A program made the position numbers and the translations under genes. A DNA stretch of 64,000 bases, taken from NCBI GenBank assembly GCA_009602735.1, contig WELA01000694.1, positions 456,986 through 520,985 of the forward strand. Direction: 5' to 3'. The DNA comes from Mesotaenium endlicherianum (taxonomy: Eukaryota). This document shows positions 29,256-54,000 of this stretch, one piece after another; within the stretch, counting starts at the first letter, position 1, and each line of letters begins with the position of its first letter. Under the pieces are notes generated by a model. It had not been told where the DNA came from. It saw only the letters and a list, made by a program, of their open reading frames with translations, and made no database searches.

Positions 29256-30252
29256 GGGCAAATTACAAAACTAGCACTATGTTTCTTTTATCTCAAATCA
29301 TTTCAAAATCTAGCACTCTAAGTTTAGTTGTTACAAAACTAGCCCTCGCACATGTAAGGCGATTCCTCGTAGGACTTACACGAATAAATGACGTGCAACA
29401 CAAATTCGCACGCAACCCTACCTGACACTCCACTTCTCTCTTTCGGTTCCAAGATTCTCCACAACCATTTTCTAGCTGCCCAAACTGCCCCAACCTCTAT
29501 CTTGAAGTTTAGCCGCTCAGCCGCGTCTGCCTTACTGAGCTCGGCCTGCCCGCTCTCGTACTCGCGTAAGAGTTTGCATGTAATGGAGCTAGTTCGATCG
29601 CTGTGAGTTGACTTGCTACGCTAGCAGCTAGTACTAGTACGATTGAGTTGCTTGCGATTGAGCTGCTCGCCACCCGATGGGAGCTCGCTAGGGCCTCCTT
29701 GACTCCCCTCCTTTTTCTCGACCATTGTTTGCAAATTTGCAAACACACTACGTCTCTATTTTGTAATTCCCTGTGATGCGCTAACAAGCGTTGTTGTGCG
29801 CCTGTTGAGCGTCTCTATTTTAAACTACCCTGTGATGCGCTAACAAGCGTTGTTGTATGCCTGTTCTTGTTGTATTCCTGACATATGTCGTCGTGCCTAG
29901 CTATGCAGGCTAATCTATTGCCTTGCTATGTCTCCGCGCCTAAGTATAGCAGCTTATGGATAGGTCCTACTGCAAAGGTACAAATAATACCTATGAATCA
30001 ATTTTTTGGCGTCTTTGGGCAGTTTGGTTCGTGAATGTGGGTCAGTTAGAAAATGGTGCTAGAAGGTTTTGGAAAAGAAAGAGATAAGTGGTGCGTAAGG
30101 TAGGCTCGCGTGCAAATTCGTGTGGCACGTCATTTATTTGTGTGAGGCCTACGTGGAATCGCCTTACATGTGCGTGTGCTAGTTCTGAATGAAACTTCGA
30201 GTGCTCAATTTGAAATAAACAAAACTTCAGGTGCTAGTTTTGTAATTTGACC
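29256..30252. mobile_element. Mutator-like MITE with long TIRs (copy 1)
   Basis: Ends gggcaaattacaaaactagcac...gtgctagttttgtaatttgacc. TIR similarity extends ~190 bp. Interior is the reverse complement of 31031-31870. No TSD recognised. Confidence 0.8.
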
Positions 30253-33200
30253 TTCAAGCTCACAAAACGTGCTCCGGCTTTTGTTAGGACCAAATGCCCC
30301 AAAGTACGTATTTTGCAAAATTTTATTTGGGACGAGTGCGCCCAAAGCACCCGGTTGTTGTTATCGGGAAGATTGGCCCAAAAAGTTGGCCGAATTTAAC
30401 CACACGGATTGCAACACCATGGAGAAAGGTGGCCGATGGCTGCAGGTGGAAAACATGAAATGTAGTGGGATGCGCTAGAACAGATGCTTATACTATTAAT
30501 ATGGTAGAATAATTGGTAATTTCGATCTTTGTTGAACTAGATTTGTCGTTTGTATCGCAAATAGCCTCCTCACGCAACCTATAATTCCTCGCGAATTGCG
30601 ACTACAAGCTCCATAAATGGCAGATGGCAACACATGTATTCTTTCATGTGAAGGATTTGCATGTCGCTTGAAACATGCTCGGAGGTGTCCGGAGGTCTTT
30701 GTGTTGGATATTGCTTTTTGGTGGTTGTAAGCAGGTCGTGACTCGTAATATGTCACTTTTTGTATCAAATGTGTTTGATGACGAAGTCTCACGTAGTGCT
30801 ATATATAGATTTTTAACAGATACTAATTTAAAGTAACACAAGCTCTATTCTTCTCGTGTCTAAAGCTGCTTCTTCTTTCATGTAACAATAATCCAAAATA
30901 CCAGGTAGATGAAGAGCGCCATACATTTATTTTGAAATGCGCACGGAAAGAGGAAGAAAAGGGGGTGTCCGACCTACTTTCGTGTCGATTAAACACAAAC
31001 CCATTGACGTGTTGACACGATAATAACTAGGGACAAATTACAAAACTAGCACTCAGAGTTTCGTTCATTACAAAATCTAACACATAAAGTTTTGTTTATT
31101 ACAAAATTAGCACTTGCACATGTAGGGGGAGTCCACGTAGACCTCACACAAATAAATGACATGTCACACGAATTTGCAGGCAACCCTACCTAACACACCA
31201 CTTCTCTTTTTTGTTCCACAATCACTTTACTAACTGACCCACCTTCACAAAGAGAACTCTCCAGAGACGCCACAAAATTGGTCCACAGCTATTTTTTAAA
31301 CCTTTGCAACAGCACGTAACCTGCTACACGTAGGCGTGTAGACAAAGCAATATTTAGGCTGCATAGCTAGGCACAACGACATATGGCAGGCATACAACAA
31401 CAGGAATACAAGAACGCTTATTAGCACATTACAGGCAAGCATAAAATAGAGACGCTAGTGTGTTCCCAAATTTGCAAATAATGGTCGAGAGAAAGGAGGG
31501 GAGTAAGGGAGGCCCTAGCGAGCTCTTATCGGGTGGCGAGCAGCTCAATGGCGAGCAACTCAATCATACGGGTTGCTAGCGTAGCAAGTCAACCCACAGC
31601 GATCGAACTACCTCAAATACATGCAAAATTATTAAGCGAGTACGAGAGCGGACAGGCCAGCTCAGTAAGGCAGACGCGGCTGAGCTTAGGCAAAATTGCA
31701 AGATCGAGGCTGGGGCAACTTGGGTCAGTTAGAAAAGTGGTTGTGGAAACTTTTGGAACCGAAAGAGAGAAATAGTGTGTTAGGTAGGCTCGCGTGCAAA
31801 TTCGTGTGGCACGTCATGTATTCATGTAAGGTCTACGTGGACTAGCCTTACATGTGCGAGTGCTAGTTTTGCAATTAGTTTGAAAAACACTTCTAGATGT
31901 GTAGTGGAATACATCAATTTTTACCATCGATTTGCGCCACTATACCAACTTTAACAATCGATTTGTGCAAGCTGGACAGAAATATATAGATTCTGCCAAT
32001 TTGGACAAAAAGGCCATTTTTCGTCTCGAACACCTCAGGATATAAAGCAATAAGAACACGGGCTTTTCTTATCGCTAGGTCCAATCAGCAAGCTTGTGTA
32101 AGATAGGCTTGACACGAATAAATGAGGGTATGAAATCGTTGCTCTTAATGTACGCTTTTTGTTTTTGAGGAGAGAATCTTGGCTTTTTAGACAAAAGTTT
32201 TGAAGGGATATTAATCTGAAATTGAATCCAAAAGTTGAAGGACTGAAGGGGAGGGCCGAAAAAGCTTGGGCTTGCAAAAGAAACGCTATAAGATCCGCGG
32301 TTTAGAGTTTATGGTAAAGATGTAAAGATTTATGCTTGCAAAATTTTTAGAATTTCAAAAGAAATGAAAATAGCTGCTCGTATAGGTCACTGAAATTAGC
32401 CACATGGTCACTTCACTTTTTTGCTTAGAAAAGGCTGTCAAAAGACATTCGTGTGGAGATAGTTTGCACGACTTATACGAGATAACTTAAAGTGCTCGAT
32501 GACACTCGCTACAACGTAAACAGTGAGAAAGCAGCAAAAAAAAGTTCAGGACGAAAAAGTGGCGTTTTTGTCTAAATTGGCAGAATTTGTATTTATTTAT
32601 GTCCAGTTTGAACAAATGTCGCGACTGCTATCCACTTGACAGTGCCGCACGCGCAGCGCAAGTCATGGCCGCCCAAGTACGGGAAGTCAGCATTGACTCA
32701 CCGACCAGAGGACCGACTCAGCGATCATGTTGAAGTCGTTATCACTGTCAAAGTGGTCACGACACGTCAAATCCACATCAAAGACTGGATGGGGATTTGG
32801 ACAGAGTAGTCAGCCGAAAGGCTAGGGGCATGGGATCAGCAATAAGCCAGCCCAACGAGTGCCAAGAAAGGTACTGATCAATCGGCTATCCAAGCCAAGT
32901 ACAGCAGGGATGTTGCAAAGGGCGTTGTATGCCGTCTCGGCCAGACCCTTAGGTGACTAGTCACGACTTGAGCGTTCATCCTAAACGCTGCCAGCCAGCC
33001 ACATAGGCGTGATTATCAGCTGAAAGGCTAAGCGGTTACACGCAACAATCCCAATGCATGCATGCATGCTCAATGACAACTTCTAAGCTGTGTGAGAGCT
33101 GCTGGGTAAGGACGGCATGCAAGCTAAGCGCTGTGACTAAGCACTGGCATTCTCGAGAGAGGACAGCGCGTGGTGCCTGTGAAAGGCACGAGTCCTGCCT

Positions 33201-33374
33201 GAAGCAGCCTCATTCTTGCTCGCATCATTGTCAAAGGAAGCTGAAGAAGCAGAAGTAGCGCAAAGAAGAAGGAGTTCCCAAGGCCAAGAAGAGCCGGGGC
33301 GCCACGCTTCTACCGACGCCGGAAGATTTCTTCCTAAGCTCGCATCATTGTCAAAGGAAGCTGAAGAAGCAGAA

Positions 33375-34584
33375 TGTAATGAATCAGTTCATTATTTATT
33401 TAATTAACTGCATATATAAATATAACACTAAATAAGTGTTATGTCTATATACTCACATGTGCGAGTTCATCTAAATGAATGTATGTCGATGTAATGCGAG
33501 TTTACTTACTTTGTCAAAAAGGTCAGCAGGATGACTTTTGTACCATAGTGTAGTCTGCTGAGATTTATATATCAGTTATATATAGGATCTAATAGCAGTA
33601 GGTTGACATATAGTAAGCTCGCTTGATATTAGTCAATATACTTAGCTTCAGTACGCAGAGGATAGACATATTCATTTAGATTGTTATTTGTAGATTGGCA
33701 CATGTGACCGAAGTATACTGAAAGTCGGGAGGTCGACTGAGATTCGGTAAACCGATGTCCTACCAGTGTGGTTGAATCCTGGGTAGGCGGAGCCGTCGTC
33801 AGTCAACTGAACAGTTAGGACTTCAGTCAACCGACCAATTAATATGGTCGTTATACCTAGATCCGTGGGCCCCAACTTAACGGGTTTCCCACGAAACGGC
33901 GCACCTTGCGCCGTGGTCAACCAGGTGGTCACTAGGTACATAGCAGGTTGGGATCTCGTGGTCCCTCATTCTGGACAGTAGGCTTTGCAGTCGGATTTCT
34001 ACTTGCAAGTGATGTGTGCACTTTTTGGGTTTGTTCTAATGACCAGCCTTCACAAAAATTGCCATGACTGATTCGTTTGCGCTCCATTTTGAGCGAACTA
34101 GAACTTTTCGGAAAGGTCTCGTCAAGATGCATCCGTTGCTGTTAAGTTTGCTCAATTTGGAGTAGTATTGACAGAGTTATGCCCTCTGACACTTCGGGGT
34201 CACACAACGGACAGATTCCATGGTTTTTGCACCTAAGTCAGTGGGATGTGTTTGAGCTACTTTATGGTCATCTGAATGAGAGCGCCTTTGCTATTCAGTC
34301 CCCTGATGTTGTGTATGTGCTTACACATGCTTGTATGCCTGGTAGGCAAGAGGTCAAGAGTTTCTAAAGGAGAAGCTCTAGTCCTCAAGCTCGCCTCTTT
34401 CTTGTGCCTCGTATTCGTGTGCAACTATGGCACACTACGATAAGTGAGTCAAGGGTTATAGATGAGTAAACGGAATTCATTATAAGGGCGAAGATCGCTC
34501 CCTGATTTCACACGCTTCCACCTATCTCTGATCTTTTATATTTAAATGAAATATATTAATCTTGAATAAGCAAGATTCATTTCA
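33375..34584. mobile_element. Solo LTR of an unrelated family inserted in A1
   Basis: TGTAATGAATC...GATTCATTTCA termini (10/11 inverted repeat) and 5-bp TSD CAGAA (33370-33374, 34585-34589). Confidence 0.85.
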
Positions 34585-35180
34585 CAGAAGTAGCGCAAAG
34601 AAGAAGGAGTTCCCAAGGCCAAGAAGAGCCGGGGCGCCACGCTTCTACCGACGTCGGAAGATTTCTTCCTAAGTGTATCATAGAAAGGTGAGACCTCAGG
34701 AGTTCCCAAGAGAGGATCTCGCTGTTAGAAAGTAGAGAGCTGCAGAATAGAATATGTTAGGCTATTAGCACAGATTTGGGTCAAAACGCCGCAAGCGTGC
34801 GAGGATCATTTACAATGGTGAGTGCTGTGTTAGTTTCCAAGTTCTTAGAAGTCTCAATGGTCGAATTGCTGATAGCAAGAGTAGTATTAACAAGTAAAGT
34901 TCTCAGTGAAGAACTGAGTGAGCCCAGCCAAGCAGTGAAGAGCTGTTAAGGTGCGGTGTCGAGCGAAGAGCTCAGACCAGGCCAGCATAGATGTGCAGTT
35001 CAGAGTTTTGTAAGCTGTGACTTGTGGAAGTTAAGCGAAAGCCTTGAAGAGCGATTTTCTTTGAACCTGGCATTGCCTGTTAAGTTGCTTCGACGTGATT
35101 TCTGCAAACTATGAACTTGTTCATTCTGTAAACCCTCAACTTGGGCAAAAACCTGTGTGGAAGTAAGACGCTTCTGTCCT

Positions 35181-35196
35181 ACTTCTGAGAACTTGG
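35181..35196 (+). promoter_or_regulatory. Putative self-priming primer-binding site
   Basis: ACTTCTGAGAACTTGG directly follows A1. It is the reverse complement of CCAAGTTCTCAGAAGT inside A (16/16 at 3998-4013; 15/16 at 34837-34852 and 52237-52252). Confidence 0.7.
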
Positions 35197-35209
35197 TTGA
35201 TTGGTTTAG

Positions 35210-36925
35210 ATGAGCAAGAATTCCCAAGTCAGTTGGGGATTGAAGCCTGTGAAGGCTGCCGGTGTTCAACCTGGAAGGGGACCCAGAGAAATTCAACTGT
35301 ATATGCGGTTGAAGAGTGGAAGACTCTACCACTCTGTGGAGCCTGCAAAAAGTTCTGATTCTAGCCAGAGTCCACGAGAAAATGAGACGTCTGAGCATAC
35401 TGACAACCGGTGGAGTGAGCAACCGTCGAGAGACGACTCTCGTCATAACTCCGCAAACGGTGAGAACCCAGTTAACACACAAGCCTATGCACCTGATTTG
35501 GGCAGAAAGCAAGACGTGTGGGGAAGAGTCAGTGAGTCCTGTTCATCGTTCAAAATGGCTGGTGATGATCGGGATGAAGATCCTAAGTTCAAGCTGTCTG
35601 CAAAGGGTTTTAGCGGACGAACCAGCGGAAATGGTCTCACTTTCGAAGAGTTTGATGAGATCTATTGGGCAGAATTCTTTGAGAAGATTTGGAAGGACTC
35701 TTCTTATACGCAATCCGTCGCATTTATAGGCTTGGTTCAGTTCTTGGACAAGGATGCCCTGCTGTTATATTGCCAATTCCGGAAGGATGAGGATCTCACC
35801 CAGGAATGGGCGTTTGGAGAACAGAAAAGGGCTAGGGATTAAAAATTCCAGAAAGAGGCTGCGAAAGTCCGAATGTCCGCTTTATCTTCAGGAAGAAGAG
35901 TGACAACTGCACCTGTTGAGAGCATAGACCTAGCTGCACTAACACGAGAATTAACAGAGGCCATGAGGCAACTCACTGAGGGCCAGCGGAAGGCTGCCAC
36001 TCAAGATGATGATGCCGGCTCTGTCGCAGAATTGCGAAAGGTGTGTGCAGAACTGTCTGAAAGGATTGCTAAAGCTCAAGAACAAGTAACACGCAGAGCT
36101 ACACCTCTCAATGGTCAGCAAAGCGATAGCGCCACGACAGAGGCAAGCCATGCGCAAGCCTTGGCTAGCTGTCGTAAGGATATGGAGGCTGGGGATGACC
36201 AGCTAGACTCCACGCATTGCCTGCGTCGTTTCTTCAAGTTGCTTGTAGCACGATTCCCAGAGGATCGCAGTCTTAAGGTGCACCGTTATGTGCATTTTGT
36301 TCGTTAGAAGAACGAGACAGTCATGGAGGTCAAATCCAAAATGGTAGACCTCGCCAAAAAGGCAAAAATATACGAGCCCACAATAGTGGCTGACAAGTTT
36401 TTGTTGTGCTTGGGCAAGGAAACAAATCGTGAAGTCAGGCCACATCTGTTCGCAAAGCACGGGATTGACTGGGACATCGACGAGGCGGCTGAAATAGCAC
36501 GTAATGTCAAAGAAGGTTAAGTGTGGTATAAAGAGGCTTCCAGGACGCTTATGGCTCCTGAGAGGAGAGAGGAATTCTCTTTGCCTAAGGCCAACAGCTC
36601 TAATTTTCAGCTAAGAAAAAGAGCGGGTCTTTCAATAAGTTTGCTGAGCACGCCAACACTACTGAAACAGCAGAGAGTTGTTGGAATTGCGGGAAATCAG
36701 GACATCAGAAGAGAAACTGTGCGTACCCAGATGCTAAGCAACTATCCGCTAGCAAAGCGCAGATATGCGCACATTGCAGTAAGAAGGGACACTCAAAAGA
36801 TGAGTGCTGGTCTAAGAATCCAAATCTAAAGCCGCCCTGGGCAAATGCTGCCACGAAAGAGGCAGACAGAGAGAAAAAGAAAGAAAAGAGTGGCTCCGGT
36901 AACCGCAAGGGTAACCAGAAGCTAT
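35210..36925 (+). pseudogene. Gag with two CCHC zinc knuckles (stops and frameshift)
   Basis: Same-frame ORFs at 35210, 35873, 36323 and 36521. CWNCGKSGHQKRNC and CAHCSKKGHSKDEC at ~36679-36807 lie in a shifted frame. Confidence 0.8.
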
Positions 36926-37253
36926 GAGTGCAGAAATCGCTGAGTTGAAAGCGCAGTTTGCGAAACTAAATGCGCCCAATGCCTACAATGATGCAGATAT
37001 TGCAGAAAAGACCGTCTGCAAAGGCGAGAAGCGGCTGCCTGAAAAGGCTGTGAATGCAACGGCTGCCGAGCAAGCAGATCACAACCGTCTGGTGCCAAGG
37101 AATGCTGGGAAGCTTCCTCAGACTTTTCGGAACACTCTGGATGAAAACGAGATCTCGCAGCTACAACAAACCAGGCCCGGGTTGCGCAAGACATTTAGTT
37201 TTTCACTGGAGAAGCTGAAGGCCTTGGTGGAACATCGGATCTAGCATGCTCCT

Positions 37254-37919
37254 TTGCTTTCTCTCGCTGATTTGCATATCACTTACCTATTTACGGTTGA
37301 AGAGGCCGGACATCAGCTGGATATAGCTGAGGAAGGTGCAAATAGCGCCTCATTGCCCACCAATTTTAGCACCGTGAGAGTGCAAAATAAGGATGGTGCA
37401 TTGATCTTCAACAACTGGGCAGCTCCCAACATTCTGTTGGATACAGGCGCACAGCCAGTCTTTTTGGGAAAACGAGCTGTGAAAGCTCTAGGTTTGACGA
37501 CAAGGGACCTGAAAGAGAGTCCTTTTCAGTTGAGAATTGCCTCAGGACAAGTCTCAAAGTCTTGTGAGATTACCCGCAAGCCTGTGAAAATCACAGTAAA
37601 TCCAGGGAAACCTGAAGAGGCGTCACTATTCATGGAGTGCCTAGTGATGGAAGCTGAGAACTATGATGTTCTCTTGGGAACAGAAGCACTGATTCCCTTG
37701 GGTATGATCATTAATCTGCGGAAACAGAGAGTGACTTACCAGTCAATAGATAGGCAGCCGGCAGGAGAAATTCATGTGAAAATGGTTTGCATAGGAGAAG
37801 CAAACTACGGACTGCTAGACTGCTACGTTAATGACAGGTACCCAGAAGCCAGCGACAACCTTATGAAGCAAGAAGAGGAAGGCTATACAAGCATCAACAT
37901 GCCAACACCCTTGGTATAG
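37254..37919 (+). pseudogene. Retropepsin aspartic protease domain of pol
   Basis: ILLDTGAQ and YDVLLGTEAL motifs. Confidence 0.85.
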
Positions 37920-38079
37920 CAAACCGGGATCATGAAGCAGCTGGAAACTGTGAGTAACAAGGACCACGGCCCGCAAGAGTTGCTGCCAGTACCCTACCCA
38001 GATACCTCCACTGCAAATCTGATGCCTGGAGTGGAGCCACTGCCGCAAGGCATTGTCAGGATGGAAGATCCTTTCCGCA

Positions 38080-39030
38080 AAAGGGGCGTGGTGGTGTTGG
38101 AATTATGCGCCGGACTTGGCTCTGGGACCATAGCATTGATCCAGCGAGGAATACAGGTGGTCAAAGTCTTGTATGTGGACAACAATGACCACGCTTTTCT
38201 AGCATTCCAAGAGGTCATAAATCAGATGCGGCAAATGCATCATTTTAAAGGGTTGGCGCCCGCATATAGCAATGTCGAGCGCATCGCCGGAGGCAACATT
38301 ATGAACGTGAAGCCTGAAGACCTGTATGGCTACAGGATTGATTGGATCTTTGCTGGATTCCCTTGTCAACCATTTTCTCAAGCTGGAAACAGAAGGGGAT
38401 TCGATGATCCACGAGCACAACATTGGGGATGGATGGTGATAATCATCAGCATGCTGCGAGAATGACAGCACTATGACCCACCTGTGTTTGTGATTGAGAA
38501 CGTACATCCAGGAATGGATTACAAGCAGATGAAGCCGGGAGAACCATGGTTGATTTTCGACTCCACTTTGGGTCATCATGTGCTAATCAACGACGCCAAG
38601 CACGGAGGATTATCCCATAGGGCCAGGATATTTTGGACCAACGGCATGTCTATTGAGGTTCTGAGAGAAATGGAGGACATTACACGGCGATCACCAACGG
38701 CATTGACATTGGAAAAGGCACTGGTGGTGTGTACCAGACCAGTGACCAGGAGGGATTCCTATTCACAGTGTGTCATTAACGAACCAGGCCAGCCAAGAGT
38801 GGTACTGCCAACCTTCACAGCATATCTAGGATCCCGAGCCTTCATAGGAGGTGGACCAGGAATGGTCAAGGACATGCATGAAAGAGACGTCGTGTGGAGA
38901 GAGCCTACCGTGGTGGAAAAGGGCAAATGCCTTGGAATACCCGACACCATAGCTCGGCATATAGCCGGTGCCGTAGGGTCGGATGAAGCTGCAAAGATCT
39001 TCGGCAACATGATCGGGCAGCACTCCATGA
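38080..39030 (+). pseudogene. C5 cytosine DNA methyltransferase domain in frame with pol (one internal TGA)
   Basis: Motif I VLELCAGLG, IV AGFPCQPFSQAG, VI VIENV, VIII HRARIFW and X IFGNMI in canonical order. Same frame as the protease and the RT N-terminus. Confidence 0.9.
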
Positions 39031-41282
39031 CTTGGTTGGTGGAAATAATCATGACATGGCAACAGTTGACCTTCACTGACAAGCCTATGCCGAGACCAAG
39101 ACCAATGACAATTGGGTTCAATTTGGTGCCAACATTTGATCAGAAGGCTATCAGAACGGCACATCAGCAACGAGAAGAATACTGGGTGCAAAGACACGCA
39201 GCGGAAGCCGCTGTAGACAAAGCATTCAAGGGAGGTAGGGTGGCAGAACTGATGAGATGTCAGGATCCGTTGGACCGGATTGATAACCGGACCAATGAAT
39301 TACAAGCACCTCTGGAAAGAGAGGATACATCCATGAGAGATCCGGTGCCCGAGCAGGCAGCGCCGCTACCAAGAGTAGAAGACGATACGCATGGCACCCC
39401 ATCATCTGGGAGAAACGCCACTCACAGCCAGATTTTTGGGAGCTCACCTCCCGGAGCAACGACATCAATACGTGAAGAGACCCTAGAAGAGGCCAAGTCA
39501 GGGTATGATACCCCCCTCAGCCTAAGAGCAGCTGGGCACAGAGACTATTGGCAGGACAGCTCAAGTAGCTGAAAAGCCAACCAAAAGTGTCCATCGTCTT
39601 CACCAGAGCGAGCGTCGTTACGAGACATGTCAGAAGAATCCGAGAAGACGGCTCCTGAGCCTACAGCCAAAAATACTGGATACTGCCTAAACCAAGTACT
39701 AATGCAAGAACGCCAGTGCAATCTTGGTGAATGGGCCGAAGAGAGTAGCCAGAACTTGGGAGATTCTGGAGGGTCTGCAAAGACCATATGTCTCGAAGTG
39801 ATATTCGAAGAACGCCAAGAGGAGTTGGACAAGAAACTGTCTACAACACCTGCCTTGATGAGCCCAGAGCCGCAGGCTAAGAGGCAACAGCAGGGTTCAG
39901 CCAGTGAAACAGCTGAATCCATTGCAAGGCAAATCATGGAGCACCTCCTGGACGCAGACGCTCGACAACACAAGGAAAGGGAAGTGGCTAAGGCGGCAAG
40001 CGCTCTGCAATCAACCATCGTCAACATGGCGAAGCTCAACACAGATAAGGAAGGAGAACCGCCACCACCCGGAGCGGAGAAATCAGTTGAAGATGAGGCA
40101 GAGATGCCAGACCTTCCACGGTTCGACCTGCCGTCAGTCACCAATGAAGAGGAGACTCGGGAAGAAATTCCACGTTTTCCTACCCCAGAGCTGAACCTGT
40201 TGGAGCTATAAGAGCTCAGAATGGATGATTGGGTGGCCGACCACTTGATGATGGAAGGACCCAGCCCGGCCGATCTTTACAACGATCTAAGGTCGCCCAC
40301 ATCCAGCACTTCACCCGCCAGTTTTCCAGCACCAGAAGCTACCCCACATCAGCTACAACAGCCGCAGGAAGTGGCTGCCTGCACTGCTAAGGTGGAACCA
40401 ACACAAGGAAATCCTCACGGTCGCGCAAGCAGACTAAGAAAGGTGGCCCGAGAAGGGAATGCACCTTTTAGGCGGATGCTGATGCGTTATCTCAAGTACA
40501 GGGGAACAGCTCAGAGAGAAGGGGTTCCGAAAGGAACTACGGCTCCTCCTCCGCAACCTATCCTGGAGATTCTGCAGAGAGAAAGAGAGGATGGCTTAAT
40601 TTGCAAAGCCATGGCATTGGGAATTCACATTCCCATGGTGCGTCCCTCATCCACTGGAACGTGGGAGAAGGACAGTTCAGCTCTTAGGACACCTGCAATG
40701 TTTGAAAGAGAACTGGTAGTGCTGAGAAGCACCATAAGCCGCTTGACAGCAGAGAATGCTATATACGCACAACTAGATGCGGCTCAAAGATCGCAGACTG
40801 TGACACAAGCATGGATGGTTACGCCATCAGCCAGGGAGGAGTTTGGCACAACCGTTGCGCGCATAGCTACCATTGAGCGCGAGTGGGGTTGGACAATCGA
40901 CCCCAAAACAGATCCAGCAGGGTGGCCTTTGCCAAACCCACCCCCACCATGTGAAGAAGGAGGAAAAGGGACCAGCTGGACTGCAGCCGATGAAGAAAGA
41001 TTCTAGAGGCAGCCCATCCGGAGGCGTCTGACCTACTCCACGCAACAAGAGAGGCGACGATCTATCAGAAAATGTAAAAGGCCTAAGAAGCAGGCCGCCG
41101 AGCCTGAGACAGCGGAGGAGCAAGCTGCAAAACCTGCCACTTCACCGCCTAACAATCAGGCAGAAAAGCCTGAAGGCCAGGATGAGGGCGGAAAACCCCC
41201 ACCTGGACCCAAAGAGTAGCAACTACTGGATGCCTGTGTTGGGAAAAAGCAGCCAGCAACTGAGGTTTTCACCATTGAAAAC

Positions 41283-42594
41283 ATGGCCTCAGCCCAACAG
41301 AGTGCACAAGTAGGGAGGCTGCTTAAAAAGCACCACAAGGTGTTTGCTTTTACAAAAGAGGAGATTGGTAAAACCACTGCCAGTATGTGTGAGATCACAT
41401 TAACTACTGATAACCCAGTCAGACTTGGGCCGCATAAGCTCAGTCAGACCGAATGGGACTGTGTGGAGAAAGCTTGCCAGGAGCTGCACAAGCTCGGCAT
41501 GATCGAGAAATCAACCTCCATACATGGAGCTCCCACGATAGTAGTTACCAAGAAGGACGAGGATGGCAATTATACAGCCACTCGTATGTGTGGAGACTAC
41601 AGACGACTGAATCTTCACACGGAGCTAGACAGCTATGTGATGCCTACACCAGAGCGGATCTTTGCGATTGCTACCACCGGGAAGGTGTTCAGCATCATCG
41701 ATCTACGCCAAGGTTTCAACCAGATCCTTGTGAAAACAGAAGATTGAGGTAAGACCGCATTCTGGGCCCAATGGGAACTTTGGCAATGGACGGTAATGCC
41801 GTTTGGGCTGAAAAATGCCCCAACCTTCTTTCAGAGAACTATTGATAAAGTGCTGGAGGGGCTGGATTTTACAAAACCATACATTGATGACGTAGTGGTA
41901 TTCAGCAATTCCATAGAGGAGCACCTCGAGCACTTGGCGCAAGTGGTCAGCGCCTGGAGAAATTCCAGATGACGCTGCACCCTGGAAAGTGCAGATTCTT
42001 TGAGGCACATGTGCCTTACTTAGGACATGAGATTGGGAACAATGCTATGTCCCCTCAGGTTGTAGAGACTGAAGCCATTTACAAAATACCTGCACCAGCA
42101 AATGTGTCTAAGCTGAAAGCTCTGTTAGGACTAAGCGGATGCTGTTGTAAATTTGTGAATAATTATAGCAAAATTGCTAAACCCTTGACAGAAATCTTGA
42201 AAAAGGACATACCGTTTGTGTGGACGGATTCCCAGGAGAAGGCCATGAACGAGCTCAAGGAGCGGCTAGTAACAGCCCCAATCTTGCGAACACCTGACTA
42301 CTCCAAGCCGTTCAATCTACACACCGACTGGAGTCGTGTGGGAATTGGCGCAGTACTCACTCAGGCCGAAAGTCCTAGAGAGGAGTACTTCATTGCCTAT
42401 GCCTCGCGCTCTAACAACTGAGCGGAGAGCAACTACTCATCCTACGAAGGAGAGCTACTGGCAGTGGTTTGGGCTGTTGCACATTTCAGAGAGTATCTAT
42501 GGGGAAGACCCTTCACGCTGATCACAGATCACTCGCCATTACTCTGGCTGATGAAGAATTTAGACCTCACTGGTAAATTGGCTCGTTGGGCTCT
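41283..42594 (+). pseudogene. Reverse transcriptase and RNase H (disrupted; continues at 49328)
   Basis: RMCGDYRRLN, IDLRQGFNQI, VMPFGLKNA, YIDDVVV, LHTDWS, IAYASR, LITDHSPL. GKLARWAL resumes as KLQEY after the nested element. Confidence 0.9.
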
Positions 42595-43882
42595 TGTAGT
42601 GAAACAGATAGATAAAGTACTTAGTGAAATAGAATATTTTATTCATTCAAGACAAGGATCTTTGAACACAAGTGGTAGCTTCTTGAAAGAGATATGGCTT
42701 CTTGAAAGTTAATATATTTCTGGATTTTGGCAAGTACAAGAGTGATTCTGGAATGTCTTTCTATGTTTTAGCTCTTGTTTATATACTTGCTACATAAGTA
42801 ATTTCTAGGAAAGTGTATGTTGATGTGTTGGCACCCAACACATCCCAAAACTTGCCACCTCTTTCTAGAATAATGTACACATGTCCTTTTGACCTAAAAA
42901 TGGCACATCTGACTTTTGCCACATGGAGTTCTTCTAGGTCTTTCCTCTAACTTCGAAAATGCCTTGGAAGGTTCAAAGGACATGAACCAAGTTACTAGAG
43001 TACCTATTCACACTTGACTCCACACAATACTACTCCAAATATATTTGAAAACATTAAAATATATGCAAACTAATATATAATAACTCAAATCACTACATCA
43101 CCCCCCCGATAGAAAAAGCGACGTCTCGGCGCGTCAAGTCAGGTTTTACACATGTGGAGCAAACTAGTCAAAAGTTTCAAGTCAGATGCCACACATGTGG
43201 AGAGGACTAGTCAAAGGCGCCAAGACAGGTGCTACCCATGTAAGGTAGACTAGGCAAGGTCGTAGGTGGTGTGACCTTATTGGCTAGCCTACTCCTTAAT
43301 GATAAAGAAAATTGTACAAGTTGGCCCAGAATCTGCCACGAACTCAAAATTTCATAGCGTCCACATAATTGCTCCAAATCTAAAAATTTGAGTGCCAAAC
43401 GGATTGCGTCGGAGAACTCTACCGGGTCACCAAATTTGAGAGCATTCTCATTTCTGGAGTGTCGTTGAGAGCTGAGAGAGTAAGCACTCNGAGAGAGTAA
43501 GCACTCCTCCAAATCAGTGCAAAAACTTCTGAAAATCATAAGTCCTTCTATACTTCTTTAAATACTGCAAAGTAAGTCTCAAAATGGGCGCTGTAAGATG
43601 TTCTACCAGAGTCTTGAGTTTAAAGCATTCCAAGTTCAGGGGAGGGCACAATGTCAGAAGGCATATTCTGCCCTAACAATGCCAGCAGCCTGACCCTCTT
43701 CTACTTGAAGCATCATATCTCTCTCACCAGTGCTTCAAATTGAGCAAACTTGGACTCTAAATGACCGGCTACTCATGGACTATAGCCAGGTAAATTTTCA
43801 GAATTTATTATGCAGAGACCTATCACCAGTAGCAGTTTTAGTTTTCTGTCCAGAAACTGCGAGAAGAGAAGAGTGTCTAATG

Positions 43883-46800
43883 TCAATTTTTCCTCTTTCT
43901 TGTTCTTGCAGGCTGCCTCCAAGGGGTCTTCTGCTGCTTCTTGATGGTGGCAGGCTGCCTCCCTGAAGTCTTCGGGCTTCTAGTAGAGAGACTTGGGGCT
44001 GGTCCAAGATGGGGGTTGGCGGCATGGAAGCGCTTCAACTTTCTCTGAACTTTGTCAAGGTAGTGCGCCGCCACCCAACTATTCTCCGAATCTGGATATC
44101 CTTTCCACTTGATCAAGTATTGCTGCTGTCTCCTGAAATTTCTCATAGCCACTATGTCTTCCACTTCGTACTCCAAATGATCATCCACTATTGTTGGGGC
44201 TGGTGGGGTTGTCACACGTCCTGGGAACTTGTTGTCGGGTTGCACATATGGCTTGAAGAGGGAAGCGTGGAATACGGGGTCGATGTGCATAGTCTGGGGA
44301 AGTTCTAGCTTGAAAGCAACGGGGTTGACTTGCTGGATAATCTTGAAGGGTCCCAAATACTTGGGAGAGAACTTGCTGCCGGCAGGCCTGTTGTTCAGGG
44401 AAATGTTCTTGGATGATAGTAACACGTTGTCACCCACTCTGTACGTAATTTCTCTTCTGGATCTGTTCGCCACTCTTGCTTGAGCATCTTGCGCGTGTTG
44501 TAGAGCTTTCTTCGCTGCTGTAAGGGCTGCTTCTAATGTCTCCATAAAATCTGTGGCTGCAGGTACTTCATCATGGCCAGCCGTGAAGCTCAGTGGCGTG
44601 GTCGGATGGAAGCCATAGTTGAGGAAGAATGGGGACTCTTGGGTAGAGGCCTGCGTAGTGTTGTTGTAGGCAAACTCGAGGGGGGTCAAGTACATGTCCC
44701 AGTCTTGCTCGAGGGTAGACACGTAGGCCTTTAGAGAGGTCTTTAGGGTACGATTCATACGCTCGGTTTGCCCATCTGATTGTGGGTGGTATGCGGTAGA
44801 CATATCCTGCGATGTACCCAAGTTCTTGAAGAGATTTTTCCAGAAATGGCTTGTAAATCTTGGGTCTCTATCTAACATTCTTGATGGTAGTCCATGGAGT
44901 CGGAAGATGTTGTCAAAGATGAGTCTTGCAAGTTGTGGTGTTGTAGCCTTAGTCGTCGTGGGAATAAAATGAGCCATCTTGGTAAGTCTGTCCACCGCCG
45001 TGAGTATTGCATTATGGCCTCGAGGTGTCACGGGCAAGTCCACGATAAGGTCCATTGAGATGTCCGTCCATTGTCTTTCGGGGATTGGTAGTGGTTGGAG
45101 GAGTCCTCCCGCCTTTTGCGATGATGGCTTGATTCTTTGGCATGTGTCACAGCTCCTGCAGTACTCCTTGACTTGCTTAGACATGCCTGGCCAACAATAA
45201 GTCCTAGCTAGAACGCCCGTGGTCCTTNTGCAATAAGTCCTGGCTAGAACGCCCGTGGTCCTTAGGATTCCGAAGTGTCCTCCAAGAGGGTTGTTGTGTG
45301 CTTCTCGTAGAAGCAAGAGCCGGAGGTCTATGTCATTGGGAACACATCTCTGGCCCGTGTCTTGCCTCACCCAATAATTGCCTTCTTGCTTCTTGTTTGG
45401 GTCCAAGGTTGCTTCTCCGTTCTTGTAGTAAGGGTCTTTTTTATAGGCGGCTGAAAATTGAGCTTCCAGATCTTTCTTCAGCGATGTCATCACTGCGTTG
45501 AATTGCAGTCTTGAGAGGGGGTCAGCCGGGTTTGTCTTGTCGGGCTGGTACTGAATTGTGATGTTGTATTGTTGCAAGTATTCGCTCCATCTTGCTTGTC
45601 TCCTTGAGAGATACGGCTGCGTCTGGAGGTGCTTTAACGCTTCGTGATCCGTGGTAACCAGTACCTTGCGTCCTTCAACGTAGCAGCGCCAAACCTTCAA
45701 GGCATGTACAATCGCCAATGCCTCTCGCTCCGTGGTTGTATAATTTTGCTCGGCTGGATTTAGCTTCCTTGACTCGTAGGCGATGGGCTGCAGTCCCTTG
45801 CCTTGGTCTTGAAGCAGGATTGCTCCTATTGCATAGGAAGATGCATCGGTGATGACGTGGAAGGGCCAATCTGGGTTTGGACTTGGGAGTGTGAGCACCG
45901 GGGATGTGGTCAATCTTCGCTTTAACTCTTGAAATGCCTCTTCCTCTTTCTCGGTCCATGTATATAGCCTGTCCTTCTTGAGTAGATCTGTCAGGGGGGC
46001 TGCTATGTGCGAGAAGCCTTGGATGAATTTTCTGTACCAATTGGCAAATCCCAAGAATGACTGGAGTTCTTTCTTGGTCGTGGGGGTTGGCCATTCCTCC
46101 ACCACCGTGGTCTTCTTGGGGTCTATCTTGATGCCATCAGCAGTCACGTGGAGACCTAGGAACTCCACTTCTTGTTTGGCAAACTCGCATTTTGACTCCT
46201 TCGCAAACAGCTTGTTTTGCTTCAATACTTCAAGGACTTCTTTCAAGTGTCTCGCATGCTCTTCAAGGGTCTTGCTGTAGATAAGGATGTCATCGATGAA
46301 TACCACCACAAATCTGTCCAACATGGGCTGAAATATGGTGTTCATCATAGTCATGAAAGTTGCTGGCGCGTTGGTGAGTCCAAATGGCAGGACCATGAAC
46401 TCAAAATGTCCATATCTTGTCCTGAATGCCGTCTTCTCTATGTCCGGTTCTGCGATGCGAATCTGGTGGTAGCCGCTCCGTAAGTCAATCTTCGTGAAGT
46501 ACTTGGCTCCAACCAGCCGGTCCATGAGCTCATCCATGCGCGGCAGCGGGTATCGATTCTTGATGGTGATCTTGTTGAGGGCGCGATAGTCCACACACAT
46601 CCTCAAGGTACCATCTTTCTTCTTGACAAATAGCACCGGGGCTCCAAATGGCGACTTGCTAGGTCGAATGAAGCCATGCTCCAGTAGCTCCTTGATTTGC
46701 TTCTTGACTTCGTCTAGCTCCGTGTATGACATTTTGAACGTAGGCCGAGAGATGGGCTTGCTTCCGGGCTCCAACTCTATCTTGTGGTCTACGAATCTTT

Positions 46801-47581
46801 TGGGGGGTAGGCCCTTGGGCAATTCCGGGGAGAACACTTCTTTGTAGTCCTCTAAGACTTCTTGTATCTCCTTGGGAACGGGGCTGCCTTCTTGACTCTC
46901 GATGTCTTTCTTGATGTCTTTTGGCGTGATCAAGGCCAAAAGAAGCTCGTGTCCCTTTCTCACAAGTCTTTTGAGTTGGAGGGCGGACAATAGTATCTCG
47001 TGTGCCGGCTTCTCGATGTGTTGGGTCTGGATATTCTGGATTGCGCGCAAAATACAGATTCTTGAAGTGATGTCATTCTTGATCTTGATAGTACCGGTCC
47101 TCCAATCAACTTGGGGGTTGTGCTTGGTCAACCAAGGCGTCCCTAGAATGACGTCGTACTTGCCCAATTGCATGGGGGAGAACACTACTCTATCCTTGAA
47201 GGACTTGATAGAGAGTGCCAAGGGATACGTCTTCTTGGAAGAGGTAGTATAGGAGAATCCATCGGGCATCATAATCTCCTCATTGTGGTCAAGAGTTCGC
47301 ATAGTAATACCGTGCTTGGTGGCAAAATCTGCAGCAATGAAGTTGCCTTGAGCTCCGCTATCCACCAAGATGTGGACCTTCTCTCCTCCAAGGTTACCTC
47401 TCAAACTCATTGGGGCTGGAACGTCGTCTTCAACGGGGGTCTCCACCTCACTTGGCGTGTTGCCTTCTCGTGAAGTGGGTCTTGGGGTGGTAGGCTCCTG
47501 GCCTACCGGCGCTGTCCGTTTTTTGACAACTTTTTGGGGCATGAAAGTGCACGATGGCCCTTTTCCTTGCAATAGAAGCAT
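43883..47581 (-). CDS. pol: Chromovirus Pol: protease, RT, RNase H, integrase, chromodomain
   Basis: [34 protein letters not shown]...DRD...GQTER and YEVEDIV...YLIKWKGY...NSW. Confidence 0.93.
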
Positions 47582-48819
47582 AGTCCAGCCGTCATGAGAG
47601 CTTCTTTTTCAGCCGGGGAGAGTCTTGCTTTCACTCCTTGCTAGTTTCTTGCATCATAAGTGTCATTGGAGGGTCTTCCACTCTTCCAGGCAGCCGCGGG
47701 GTCCTTTTTAATAACTCCGATTTCTATGGGTGTGGGTCCAGATTCGGATGTGGAAGGGGTTGCGTACACCCACGTCGCCGGAACCCGTGAAGATGGAGGC
47801 ACGGAGTGCTTGAAATCCAAGATATCCACCTTTTGGGCCACTTCAATGATCCTTGAGAAGTCCGTCAAGTCGCGTAATTCCACTTCCTTTGCCACCTTGG
47901 GCTTGAGGCCAAAGATGTAGCGGTCAATCTTCTCCTCGAGAGACATGTTGGGGATCTCAAGAGTGAGGGTGTGAAATCTGGATGTATACTCTTGAACGGA
48001 CGTCGTTTGCTTGAGATGGTGGAGCTTTCCTCGGGCAATCTTCTCCGCATTGATGGGCATGAATTGCTTCTTGAGGGCCTCATGAAAATCTGCCCATCTT
48101 GCTTATGATGGTGGGGGCTCTTGGCCGAGCATGGGGTGCGCCATAGCTTGATATATAGCCGCTTGATAGTTACGCCACCATGATGTTGCTGCTCCTCTAA
48201 GTAAGGTAACAGTAAAGGGAACGTAGTCCTCCTCGGGTACTTCAAGGAATGCGAGGTACGTCTTCACTTCGTAGAGCCATAAATTCAGGTTGGCACCTTT
48301 TTCGGGGTTGAAAGTGTCGGGTTTGCCGGGCTTGATGAGTTTCCTTGCTCTCGTTGGCTCTTGTGGAGGCGCTTGAGCCGGGGCTGGATTTTGAGCATTG
48401 CTCGCAATAGGGGCAACTATGGCAGCCATAGCTTCTCTTGACGCTTGCACGGTTGCTTCATAGGTGGCCAAGCCCACTTGGTTGTGGACGGTGATTAGGA
48501 AGGCTGCCCACTCATTTGCGGGAATCCCTTGTGGTGGGGTCAACTTTGCTATAGCGGCTGCCACGGGATTTGACGGTGCTCCTCCTTGTGGTGCTTCTTG
48601 TTGTTGCAGATTCCTTGAGTAGGCTCTCCCATCGGCGCTGGAGGAGGGTGTACTCCTCCTTGTGGTGCTCCTTGTTGTTGCAAATTTTCTTGAGTGGGCT
48701 CTCTCATCGGCGCTGGAGGAGGGTGTCTTGGAGAGGAAGGGCTTCCTTTGAAAGCTTGCTGTTGGTCTTGAGGATCGGCCATCTTCTTGTGCTACCAAAG
48801 TGCCTAGCTCCGATACCAC
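47538..48819 (-). pseudogene. gag: Chromovirus Gag with CCHC knuckle (two in-frame stops)
   Basis: Retrotransposon gag motifs (LRGAATSWW, LKQTTSVQEYTSRF, YIFGLKP). [14 protein letters not shown] at ~47539-47580 is in the same frame. Confidence 0.85.
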
Positions 48820-49327
48820 TGTAGTGAAACAGATAGAGAAAGTACTTAGTGAAATAGAATACTTTATCTATTCAAGACAAGGATCTTTGAACATAAGTGG
48901 TAGCTTCTTGAAAGAGAGATGGCTTCTTGAAAGTTAATATATTTCTGGATTTTGGCAAGTACAAGAGTGATTCTGGAATGTCTTTCTATGTTCTAGCTCT
49001 TGTTTATATACTTGCTACATAAGTAATTTCTAGGAAGGTGTATGTTGATGTGTTGGCACCCAACACATCCCAAAACTTGCCACCTCTTTCTAGAATAATG
49101 TACACATGTCCTTTTGACCTAAAAATGGCACATTTGACTTTTGCCACATGGAGTTCTTCTAGGTCTTTCCTCTAACTTCGAAAATGCCTTGGAAGGTTCA
49201 AAGGACATGAACCAAGTTACTAGAGTACCTATTCACACTTGACTCCACACAATACTACTCCAAATATATTTGAAAACATTAAAATATATGCAAACTAATA
49301 TATAATAACTTAAATCACTACAGCTCT

Positions 49328-50975
49328 CAAGCTCCAGGAGTACGAGATGACAGTGATACATCGAGCAGGTATACTCAACAACGACGCCGATGGACTCAGC
49401 AGCAACCCCAAACCCATCCGTAGACGACAGAACGGGAGCTCGAGAAGACGAAGATCCGAGCAGCCCAGCAGAATTGGTCGCCTGCCTGGCCGTAATGGCT
49501 AGAATGGTAGCATCAGGAGAAGCTGAGCCTCTACCTCTGTTCAGTCCAGAGATCCGGAAAGATCAAGCCACTATGCATTGGCTGAAGATGGAAGTTCATA
49601 TAGAAGGATTATCGGCGAAAGAAAAGGACCAGGTGGGCCATTGAGCTAAAAGGTTTTGCTGGAAACGCAATAACCTCTTCAAGATTGAAGAAACTGGTCA
49701 CGAAAAGTTAGTGCCAGAACCCACCAAAAGACGAGCTCTGGTGCAGGAAATGCATGAGAATACTGGACACTATGGTGTCAAGAGAACATACAGTCTTCTC
49801 GAGCTGTCTAACTGGTGGAGGGGCATGAAGCAGCAGTGTGAGGATGTGATCAAGGCCTGTAAAAGCTGCAATCGCGTCAAGGCTGGTTTTACGCAGCAAC
49901 ACCCACACCTGCAACCTCTGCCAATCATGGGCCTAAGATACCGGTGGAGCTGCGATCTTGCAGGTGAGCTACCGCTGTCTAAGCGAGGTAACAAGTACAT
50001 TTTGGTCATGATTAAGCATTTCTCTAAGTGGATAGAGGTGGTGCCTCTAACTGCTAAGGAAAGCTTGGGGACCGCGGAATCGCTCCTCAATGGTGTGATT
50101 GTACGTCATGGAGCCCCAGCAGAAGTGCTGACAGACCAAGGGTCTGAGTTCCAAGGATCTTTTCAGAAACTCCTGGGCAAATGCTTCATTGACCATCGCA
50201 CTACGTCTAGAGACCACCCACAAGCAGATGGTCTGGCAGAACGGATGGTGCAAACCACTAAGTCTACTTTGCGCAAATTTTGCCTTGAGCATGATAAGCG
50301 TGATTGGTATCTGGCCCTGCCATGGCTGGTTATGGGTTACAAATTTAGCAAGCAAGCTGCTTTGGCGAATTACTCGCCTTATCAGATTCTGTTTGGAAGA
50401 AGTCCAGTTGTGCCCTGCAGCATCAAGCAGGAGATGGAGCAGGTGAAAGACCTGGACAACCCTGATGAACTGCTAAAGGTCATGTTGCGCCGCAAGGTGT
50501 TATTTGAGCACATGATGCCTGCGGCCCTGGACAATCTGAATATTGCACAGAAAAGAGACACGCAGCGTTACGCCAGGGCGCGAGATGGGAGCTACCGCCT
50601 GCAAATGACGCAGATCCAGGAAGGAGACTTCGTCTACCGCAAGCGCCAGACCAAGACCACCATTGACACCAATTCAGGTGCAGTAATCTTACGCGTGAAA
50701 CATGCGTTCGACAATGGTGTGTTGGAAGTGGAAGGTTCTGATGGTAAAACCATGAGAGATCACGTGCAGAACTGTTCGCTGTGCCACTTGCCTAATATCA
50801 ATCCTACGGTTAAGACTGTGCCCGAGGAATTGGTGCCAGTCACGCCTTGTGCCAGCTGCAAAGTGCTGGATGATTAAGAAGCAATGGTAACTTGCGATAT
50901 GTGTGGTGCCCGTTGGCATCTTCTGCATTGGTGAAGAAGAGATTCTGGCAGGACGGTGGGAACGTCCTAACTGCC
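49328..50975 (+). pseudogene. DDE integrase with a degenerate C-terminal PHD finger
   Basis: HENTGH...CKSC zinc site, WSCDLAG, LTDQGSEF and DGLAERM. Then CASC...MVTCDMCGARWH...GRWERPNC (C4HC3-like) with a stop and frameshift. Confidence 0.88.
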
Positions 50976-51044
50976 TTCCCATAACTCCCAGCGACAGGGC
51001 CAGGTTATAAAAGCTTTCAGCAGAAAGGCAGGGACGCCTCAGCT

Positions 51045-51056
51045 GAAAGGGAGGGG
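51045..51056 (+). promoter_or_regulatory. Polypurine tract
   Basis: GAAAGGGAGGGG immediately before TGTAAGGG (start of B1). Confidence 0.85.
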
Positions 51057-54000
51057 TGTAAGGGAAACTGAAGACAAGCTATCCTTTCGAAAATTTCTGC
51101 TAAGTGTTGAATGAGGAACTGGTTGAACATGGGAAACACTGAGTGTGGGATGCCTCACCGCATGATGCAAGTGCAGGAAGACCAAGAATGGGTCAAACCC
51201 CAACCAGTCTGTCACCGACACACGTGCAAGGGAGGATCAACCCGGTCGATCCCAACGTGCAACAACGCATCGACACGTTAACCAAGTCGAAGGCAGACGT
51301 GCTGAGAAGCCACGCACGCGCAAGGGCTCCGACGCTGTTAGGCACGACAGCTGTCGCGACTGCTATCCACTTGACGGTGCCACACGCGCAGCGCAAATCA
51401 TGGCCGCCCAAGTACGGGAAGTCAGCATTGACTCACCAACCAGAGAACCGAGTCAGCGGTCATGTTGAAGTCGTTATCACTGTCAAAGTGGACACGACAC
51501 GTCAAACCCACATCTAAGATTGGATGGGGATTTGGACAGAGTAGTCAGCCGAAAGGCTAGGGGCATGGGATCAGCAATAAGCCAGCCCAGCGAGTGCCAA
51601 GAAAGGTACTGATCAATCGGCTATCCAAGCCAAGTACAGTAGGGATGTTGCAAAGGGCGTTGTGTGCCGCCTCGGCCAGACCCTTAGGTAACTAGTCACG
51701 GCTTGAGCGTTCATCCTAAACGCTGCCAGCCAGCCACATAGGCGTGATTATCAGCTGAAAGGCTAAGCGGTTACAGGCGACAATCCCAATGCATGCATGC
51801 ATGCTCAATGACAACTTCTAAGCTGTGTGAGAGCTGCTGGGTAAGGACGGCATGCAAGCTAAGCGCTGTGACTAAGCACTGGCATTCTTGAGAGAGGACA
51901 GCGTGTGGTGCCTGTGAAAGGCACGAGTCCTGCCTGAAGCAGCCTCGTTCTTGCTCGCATCATTGTCAAAGGAAGCTGAAGAAGCAGAAGGAGCGCAAAG
52001 AAGAAGGAGTTCACAAGTCCAAGAAGAGCCGGGGCGCCACGCTTCTACCGACGCCGGAAGATTTCTTCCTAAGTGTATCATAGAAAGGTGAGACCTCAGG
52101 AGTTCTCAAGAGAGGATCTCGCTGTTAAAAAGTAGAGAGCTGCAGAATAGAATCCGTTAGGCTATTAGCACAGATTTGGGTCAAAACGCCGCAAGCGTGC
52201 GAGGATCACTTAAAATGGTGAGTGCTGTGTTAGTTTCAAAGTTCTCAGAAGTCTCAATGGTCGAATTGCTGATAGCAAGAGTAGTATTAACAAGTAAAGC
52301 TCTCAGTGAAGAACTGAGTGAGCCCAGCCAAGCAGTGAAGAGCTGTTAAGGCGCAGTGTCGAGCGAAGAGCTCAGACCAGGCCAGCATACATGTGCAGTT
52401 CAAAGTTTTGTAAGCTGTGACTTGTGGAAGTTAAGCGGAAGCCTTGAAGAGCGATTTTCTTTGAACCTGGCATTGCCTGTTAAGCTGCTTAGACGTGAAT
52501 TCTGCAAACTACAAACTTGTTCATTCTGTAAACCCTCAACTTGGGCAAAAGCCTGTGTGGAAGTAAGACGCTTCTGTCCTTGTAAGGGAAACTGAAGAGA
52601 AGCTATCTTTTCGAAAATTTCTGCTAAGTGTTGAATGAGGAACTGGTTGAACATGAGAAGCACTGAGTGTGGGATGCCTCACCGCATGATGCAAGTGCAG
52701 GAAGACCAGGAATGGGCCAAATCCCAACCAGTCTGTCACCGACACACGTGCAAGGGACGATCAACCCGATCCCCACGTGCAGCGACGCACCGACACGTCA
52801 ACCAAGTCGAAGGCACACGTGCTGAGAAGCCACGCACGTGCCAGGGGTCTGACGCTCTTAGGCACGACACAAACCGATTGTTAAAGTTGGTATAGCGGCG
52901 CAAATTGATGGTAAAAATGCGTTTATCCAATTTGTAATAAACAAAGCTTGAAGTTCTAGTTTTGTAATTTGCCCAATAACTAGCGATAACGCGTGTGAGC
53001 AGATGCGGAGGCATTTTTGATTTCTTTCATCGAGGGTGGTAGCCAATGTGTCTATTTCGACACTTTTGACGGGTAAAAATGACATTTTATTGTAAGCTTA
53101 GTTTTCATGAGGGCAAGCAAAAACGCTACCAACGATTTCAATTTTGACTGTGACGCGCTCGTCACGTGAACGAACGAAGTCAATTGCATATTGTTACTAA
53201 TGTACTATATGTCAAGTATCAGGCACTAACCAATGTAGTGTTGAATGTGCATTGTTTGCATGAATAGCACACTTAGAAATGATCATACTCTGAAAAAGCC
53301 AAGGCGATTTTCGGCTCCGGTAATCGTCTTCCGAAATGTATCACTTTTGTAAAAGGTATTTCGGAAAATAAATTTCAAACTGGTACCACTTATGAATTCA
53401 ATACTGAAACGCATCACGGTTAACTTCAGTCCGGGTCCAACTTCAATAAAGTTTCAATATTATTGTGGGGATGAGGCGATCTCATTATTTGAAATTATTT
53501 GACTGACCAGATCATTCACTCAAATAAGACGCGTTTCGGGTTGAGCCTGGACGCGCTTCGGGTTGTGCCCACCCGCTTGCAAATTTGCGCTTGCACTTTT
53601 GGGGCGTACGAGGGCGGGTTTGTGCATTGTATGATTTTGATAATGAACACCGGTCCATTTGCTTGAGCCTATCTATGCACTATCGCGTGGCACAGTTGTC
53701 CAAGCATGTCCACTACCTCCGCATCCTACTTGACTGTACAACCAACTTGCTCACATACGGAGCAAGTGCCTATCTTCGCCCTTTCATCTCATTCGTGTGA
53801 GGGAGATGCTGAAGACAGGTTGGTGGACGCGCATACATGAAAAATTGGCGGAGGTTCGGGTAGTCGTGGGAGGTCCTTCGCTTTTAAACGTGATTTGATT
53901 TGGGTTAAAAACCAGCACCTTATTGGTGCAGCATCTAGGACACCGACAATTATTATTTTGTTCATTGATTAAAAAACTGCCCGGAAATATTTTCTTGTTG

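Follow-up and report, generated by a model that had tools for sequence, protein, structure and literature searches.

The subject of this analysis is a Ty3/Gypsy retroelement at positions 32617-52869 of a 64,000-nucleotide stretch of the Mesotaenium endlicherianum genome (contig WELA01000694.1; the whole stretch is called the window below), whose long terminal repeats (LTRs) are split into separate A and B parts. The two integrated ends of this element are the halves of a palindrome that lies in the middle of its LTR, and its integrase very probably uses that internal palindrome. The same arrangement recurs in related families, and we hold it an evenly balanced proposition that an old Gypsy clade of algae and early land plants moved its integrase attachment site from the ends of the complementary DNA (cDNA) to an inherited mid-LTR palindrome, with joined ends (2-LTR or 1-LTR circles) as the normal substrate, an intrinsic selection of the upstream palindrome and an integrase whose core is shorter by one residue than in Ty3 and foamy virus.

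Split repeats and the palindrome between them

Self-BLAST of the window and print-outs of its junctions confirmed the order A1-internal-B1-GC-A2-B2 that an earlier note on this DNA had described, with the polypurine tract (PPT; GAAAGGGAGGGG) adjoining the start of B1 (TGTAAG) and the internal region (35181-51056), headed by the primer site, beginning directly at the end of A1 (...TGTCCT). A1 (32617-35180) and A2 (51352-52580) are 96.3% identical (1184/1229) when two additions to A1 are excluded, a tandem duplication of 119 bp and a nested insert of 1.2 kb that resembles a solo LTR, and B1 (51057-51349) and B2 (52581-52869) are 93.4% identical (270/289). The duplication in A1 spans 33220-34673 and is interrupted by that insert.

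The integrated ends read CAAA/TGTCG on the left and CGACA/CAAA on the right. CAAA is a true 4-bp target-site duplication (TSD), because an intact inverted-repeat arm (31917-32031) holds just one CAAA equivalent at the insertion site. The LTR as defined by replication is B-GC-A, without a terminal CA, and the integrated ends are instead the two halves of the perfect palindrome CGACA-GC-TGTCG (51345-51356), precisely at the B/A boundary, with the central GC lost; on all these points the earlier note was right. Perfect 12-bp palindromes number 10 within the element, so that the palindrome is weak evidence by itself; it exceeds chance in its position exactly at the B/A boundary and in its conservation across four other families.

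The protein content is that of Ty3/Gypsy elements, with the order protease, reverse transcriptase (RT), RNase H and integrase, and the element resembles them further in its PPT, 4-bp TSD and TG...CA integrated ends. However, the canonical arrangement of two full end LTRs, a primer site after the 5' LTR and a PPT before the 3' LTR is absent: neither integrated end carries a complete LTR, and the PPT and primer site do not adjoin the integrated ends. Because its layout is split, the element is Gypsy by its proteins and not a canonical LTR element by structure.

An HHCC finger and a DDE integrase are present. Profile searches with Pfam found no tyrosine recombinase in the 51 open reading frames (ORFs) of the window (>=75 aa, both strands) or in 70/80 ORFs from three related copies, although split remnants below 75-80 aa could escape such a search. 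Apart from the rve-type DDE integrase no integrating enzyme was found, as the earlier note had held. The best relative of the integrase with a solved structure is Ty3 Gag-Pol (5e-29), and its named relatives come from Klebsormidium, Closterium, Calypogeia and Riccia (40-54% identity); the top match is the K. nitens protein P0001 (51%), which need not belong to the element KnitGypsy-Dnmt3 discussed below. The spacing from the second D to the E is 34 residues in 82/82 homologs that match the pattern, with 38/120 not matching it, and alignments of the core (49645-50874, P0001-P0120) place it one residue shorter over this interval than in Ty3 and foamy virus. Speculatively, this spacing may bear on the internal cut.

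The layout in related families

The full-length test suggested by the earlier note rests on 80 metagenome loci (44-54% integrase identity, short-read assemblies), chosen as the 80 best among 567 relatives in half of the collection; a search of IMG/VR gave no relative. Two further families, whose LTR DNA is unrelated to that of the window (0 BLAST hits) and to each other, show the same A-internal-B-GC-A-B order. Among 12 distinct insertions with both ends visible, eight are A-internal-B-GC-A.B, four are A-internal-B, and none has the mirror layout or a conventional one. The expectation that full-length copies are consistently A-internal-B-GC-A-B held for 8/12; 4-bp TSDs are exact in 5/12 and one transition off in another four, and the conventional (A+B) or (B+A) copies that the earlier note had named as contrary evidence numbered 0/12.

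The spacer between B1 and A2 is 2 nt long in 28/28 junctions (27 sites) and lies between CACGACA-like and TGTC-like halves. Its letters are GC in 7 junctions, AC in 10, GT in 6, AT in 4 and AA in 1, that is, GC or its transitions in 27/28. A palindrome core GACA-GC-TGTC follows the PPT in five families including that of the window, whose LTR DNA is otherwise unalignable; L001 and L034 represent two of them. In the GC-rich relative L034 this core is part of a perfect palindrome of 16 bp that follows the PPT (1620-1637).

A pattern scan of the 80 loci for PPT-A joints or joints of B with the primer-binding site (PBS) gave five loose matches, none at a copy of A or B. In one sample that carries the species label of the window, 41 and 55 contigs have unrelated flanks exactly before 51352, the start of A. 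The sequencing runs X1 and X3 are a single sample, possibly the source of the window itself, and the read-based view showed 15/84 joints and 21/~700 loose ends, which leaves room for conventional joints in this organism. Nine sites were seen in two or three assemblies, and 0/9 change class; assembly collapse as a source of the A-internal-B copies has no support from these sites, though it could still contribute. Across the loci compared, the split layout is a feature of the clade and not an artefact.

Two observations concern the repeats of the relatives. Solo A.B units of a related family, at L054 6131-6625 and L055 15245-15724, have a 4-bp TSD (CAAT) and resemble the solo unit of the window. 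At L008 2940-3100 and L019 9173-9335, B terminates in tandem 15-bp subrepeats, each with the CACGACA end motif, and in single copies of this type one unit is lost with the motif still at the end.

Priming, joints and the proposed route of integration

The 16 nt that follow A1 can pair with a site within A that lies 344 nt upstream (34837-34852); the chance expectation for the 14-nt match is 5e-6. A TATA-like box lies ~27-30 nt upstream of that site. In 12/13 related loci the complement of the primer site again lies within A, in other sequences, and a TATA-like box stands ~20-30 nt upstream in 5/5 related loci looked at and in the A2 and solo copies of the window. Since the primer site complements an upstream A site with a TATA-like box, these sequences point to self-priming of the Tf1 type as likely, a mode described for Tf1 and Tcn1 (PMC6317226). 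Two RNA runs gave 17 and 53 reads, mostly divergent, which are uninformative on expression or start site.

The two kinds of joint differ in precision. The B/A joint is exact, whereas the A/B joint varies between copies: in the window family it has no extra bases, AC or ACT, and in other families it holds 0-5 primer-site or PPT-like bases, short duplications or ~18-nt insertions. Because the one is exact and the other variable with primer-site bases, the A/B joint is best read as newly made between natural cDNA ends, and the B/A joint as the putative integrase site. Tf1 cDNA is reported to retain copies of the primer site and PPT at its ends (PMC11042837).

In 18 loci, the distance between B1 and B2 within a locus (0.107) is smaller than that of cross pairs (0.146; 0/20000 permutations gave so low a value), and the two have private variants in common, with no class-fixed difference. 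This comparison covers loci with complete B, omitting the duplicates L011, L023, L029 and L038; L003 and L022 are one site, which only weakens the contrast. The likeness and the common private variants therefore indicate one template or later homogenisation. Separate inheritance of B2 through RNA is unsupported by this within-locus likeness.

Following the standard LTR pathway, B-GC-A should stand at both cDNA ends, since the PPT adjoins B1, and such ends lack the usual terminal CA. Transcription would start inside A1 near 34837, and the 5' end of the RNA would fold onto the primer site and prime its own copying; reverse transcription would then yield linear DNA with B-GC-A at each end. The two natural ends would be joined imprecisely, giving the A/B joint, probably as a 2-LTR circle. 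In CA-GC-TG, integrase would nick each strand just 3' of its CA, which would yield 5' overhangs of 2 nt comparable to processed retroviral ends, and the cut palindrome ends would be inserted 4 bp apart. The integrated copies display TG/CA ends, a lost GC and a 4-bp TSD. Weakest is the last step: cutting would be confined to the upstream LTR and its palindrome, possibly since this repeat turns double-stranded earliest, following the second strand transfer, and is where integrase loads. Copies of the A-internal-B type would come from 1-LTR circles cut likewise, or could arise by a double cut, B-B recombination or break repair.

That a closed 2-LTR circle is the substrate seems to us slightly the better supported view. 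The earlier note had proposed such a circle, cut at the internal palindrome, and its model comes out, by a modest preference, as the best single reading, although an incomplete one: the A/B joint does resemble an end-to-end join of cDNA, but a covalent circle before integration is still a proposal, and the mirror product is missing. This absence and several other observations weigh against the circle. The two palindromes of a circle are equal, so that the mirror layout A.B-GC-A-internal-B would be expected as well; it was seen in 0/12 both-end insertions and in 0/8 products with two LTRs (p=0.008 if both palindromes were cut equally often), and an extra asymmetry is required. Many right ends (20 of 46 distinct ones, a count that leaves out 24/80 loci for contig ends, truncation or other families) are PPT-B-flank, without A2-B2, and three of the 12 insertions (L010, L012, L078) have no clear TSD. 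In the window, A1/A2 and B1/B2 have diverged by 3.7% and 6.6% (p=0.03; private changes 12 in B1 and 6 in B2), which equal age does not predict. The likeness of B1 and B2 could partly reflect later gene conversion, and all reaction steps are read from integrated copies.

The strongest rival, which we consider possible but rather unlikely, is that the palindromes are cleaved on linear cDNA without a circle and both new ends are inserted; the leftover natural ends would form a break that the host repairs by end joining, giving A/B, or by repeat annealing, giving A-internal-B. It predicts the same ends, TSD and imprecise A/B joint, and it accounts for the numerous A-internal-B right ends. If mirror products were mostly repaired to A-internal-B, the two classes should be about 1:1, and the counts seen, 26:20 (p=0.46) and 8:4 (p=0.39), agree with this. 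However, it needs a chromosome break at every insertion, and mirror products must nearly always collapse while direct ones mostly do not.

It is less probable still that the finishing plus strand leaps from the right cDNA end to the left and recopies B, after which integrase trims at the palindromes nearest the ends. Such an RT jump would be one-sided, which fits the missing mirror layout (0/12), and it would leave a variable count of primer-site bases, but some joints hold ~18-nt insertions, one of them copying nearby A sequence (L027, L057). Insertions of this kind are reminiscent of end-joining repair.

Movement in the manner of PAT and Ngaro, by a tyrosine recombinase of the element's own or supplied in trans, would explain the A1-B1-A2-B2 repeat order and is very improbable: no recombinase was matched among the 51 window ORFs and 70/80 ORFs of related copies, the DDE integrase is conserved, and the ends are TG/CA with a 2-nt loss and sequence-diverse 4-bp TSDs. 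Least probable of all, and largely refuted already, is an assembly error or a rearrangement, at this single locus, of an ordinary (A+B) LTR element. In its favour, the solo A.B unit at 3114-4633 resembles an ordinary solo LTR in its TG...CA ends and TSD, and the related loci were assembled from short reads. Against it, two other families have the same layout, which is also published for Klebsormidium, the nine multi-assembly sites keep their class, and no PPT-A or B-PBS joint lies at any A or B copy in the 80 loci.

Known systems, coding content and surroundings

It is a long-standing question whether insertion by a DDE integrase can normally proceed from circular cDNA. For retroviruses, circles are mostly regarded as dead ends, and cleavage of their junction is described as a side route. 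Since the whole clade of the window element appears to insert solely via the internal site, the question becomes testable with a short defined substrate (CA-GC-TG) and its natural enzyme. The clade also shows that the repeat layout of PAT and Ngaro does not require a tyrosine recombinase, and programs that search for LTRs will overlook such elements or set their limits wrongly. An integrase able to insert circles at an internal site of 12-16 bp could serve as a tool.

The closest published precedent is KnitGypsy-Dnmt3 of Klebsormidium nitens, for which the legend of Fig. 4c gives Gypsy domains with a DIRS-like repeat structure (de Mendoza et al. 2018, PMC5890265). Both the cytosine methyltransferase in its pol frame and the DIRS-like layout with Gypsy domains are found in the window element, so that layout and methyltransferase are already in print; in the passages and text supplements covered, the published description gave no palindrome, TSD, primer or integration mechanism. 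The split direct repeats A1-internal-B1-A2-B2 are likewise those of PAT, Ngaro and VIPER elements (PMC4157794). The window element differs from these in its DDE integrase, TG/CA ends and variable 4-bp TSDs, with no tyrosine recombinase found.

Foamy-virus integrase is reported to cleave the palindrome at the circle junction after CA on both strands with a 2-nt 5' overhang (PMC1180852), the geometry predicted for the window element, and HIV-1 2-LTR circles can reportedly be linearised and integrated after a like cut (PMC4372172). In these viruses it is the joined natural ends that form the palindrome, and its cleavage restores ordinary linear DNA. In contrast, the site in the window element is inherited within the LTR, the natural junction is non-palindromic and the product is permuted. 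The earlier note knew of no such pathway for Ty3/Gypsy elements; the layout and the cleavage of circle junctions by integrase turned out to have been reported, whereas integration through an internal LTR palindrome as a normal Ty3/Gypsy route was found in none of the literature searched, with subscription papers and Repbase outside it.

Beyond the earlier note, the analysis identified a likely self-priming site, a methyltransferase domain encoded in pol, the chromovirus nested in the element and a solo A.B unit flanked by a 4-bp TSD of its own (Table 1). The window copy of this methyltransferase-bearing Ty3/Gypsy element is decayed, and it has a PHD finger in place of a chromodomain. Its domains were assigned by Pfam profile searches on the window ORFs, and RT was recognised from its translation and by tblastn against relatives. 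A search for the clade placement of the methyltransferase returned 13 weak unnamed matches (E 1e-6 or worse). Compared with the metagenome relatives, the window copy has much longer repeats and ~2 kb more between methyltransferase and RT. This stretch of ~2 kb (39100-41200) is in-frame, low-complexity coding sequence with no Pfam match, and no tblastn match among the 23 related loci listed.

Table 1. Features of the split element and of its immediate context (window positions)
Feature	Position	Strand	Evidence or remark
Solo A.B unit, same family, 92-95% alike, 4-bp TSD TCAG	3114..4633	+	A/B joint with three extra bases, the primer-site start
Uninterrupted inverted-repeat arm displaying the empty site	31917..32031	-	
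Left TSD CAAA	32613..32616	+	One copy in uninterrupted inverted arm 31917-32031
A1, integrated left end (TGTCG...), likely distal U3 + R + U5; contains 119-bp tandem duplication and nested insert	32617..35180	+	Self-BLAST, junctions
Solo-LTR-like insert, unrelated, TG...CA ends, 5-bp TSD CAGAA	33375..34584	.	Within duplicated stretch of A1
Likely transcript 5' end and self-primer (start inferred), complementary to primer site	34837..34852	+	Same site at 52237-52252 (A2) and 3998-4013 (solo unit)
Primer-binding site directly after A1	35181..35196	+	16/16 pairs (one G-U) with 34837-34852 in minimum-free-energy and centroid folds
gag region, CCHC knuckle, disrupted by stops and frame change	35210..36924	+	zf-CCHC 8e-6
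Aspartic protease	37245..37916	+	PF13975, 1.7e-7
C5 cytosine DNA methyltransferase domain in pol frame, one stop; 3' limit approximate	37920..39100	+	PF00145, 6e-13; same position in related loci
RT and beginning of RNase H, interrupted by stops and frame changes	41220..42594	+	
Nested conventional chromovirus, inside RNase H; outside the system	42595..49322	-	503-bp LTRs 98% alike, 5-bp TSD GCTCT
Integrase: HHCC finger, rve core, D-D-34-E spacing; then PHD-finger remnant	49645..50874	+	
Polypurine tract adjoining B1	51045..51056	+	
B1, proximal U3, ending CACGACA	51057..51349	+	
Putative internal attachment palindrome CGACA-GC-TGTCG	51345..51356	.	GC 51350-51351 missing from integrated ends
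A2	51352..52580	+	
B2, integrated right end (...CGACA)	52581..52869	+	A2/B2 joint 52580/52581 without extra bases
Right TSD CAAA	52870..52873	+	

The element is inserted in one arm of long inverted repeats (29250-32031 and 52868-52974, ~75-94% alike) of foldback or DNA-transposon type. The nested chromovirus (42595-49322) has a 1241-aa pol frame ending in a chromodomain and a primer site that is not tRNA-like on sight, and an inverted LTR related to its own (77%) lies at 63456-63943. Elsewhere in the window are a DDE_Tnp_4 (Harbinger/PIF-like) transposase frame (12272-13426, minus strand) and weak matches to xyloglucan fucosyltransferase and short-chain dehydrogenase (26229-26879 and 55278-55940, both minus strand), which are likely pieces of host genes.

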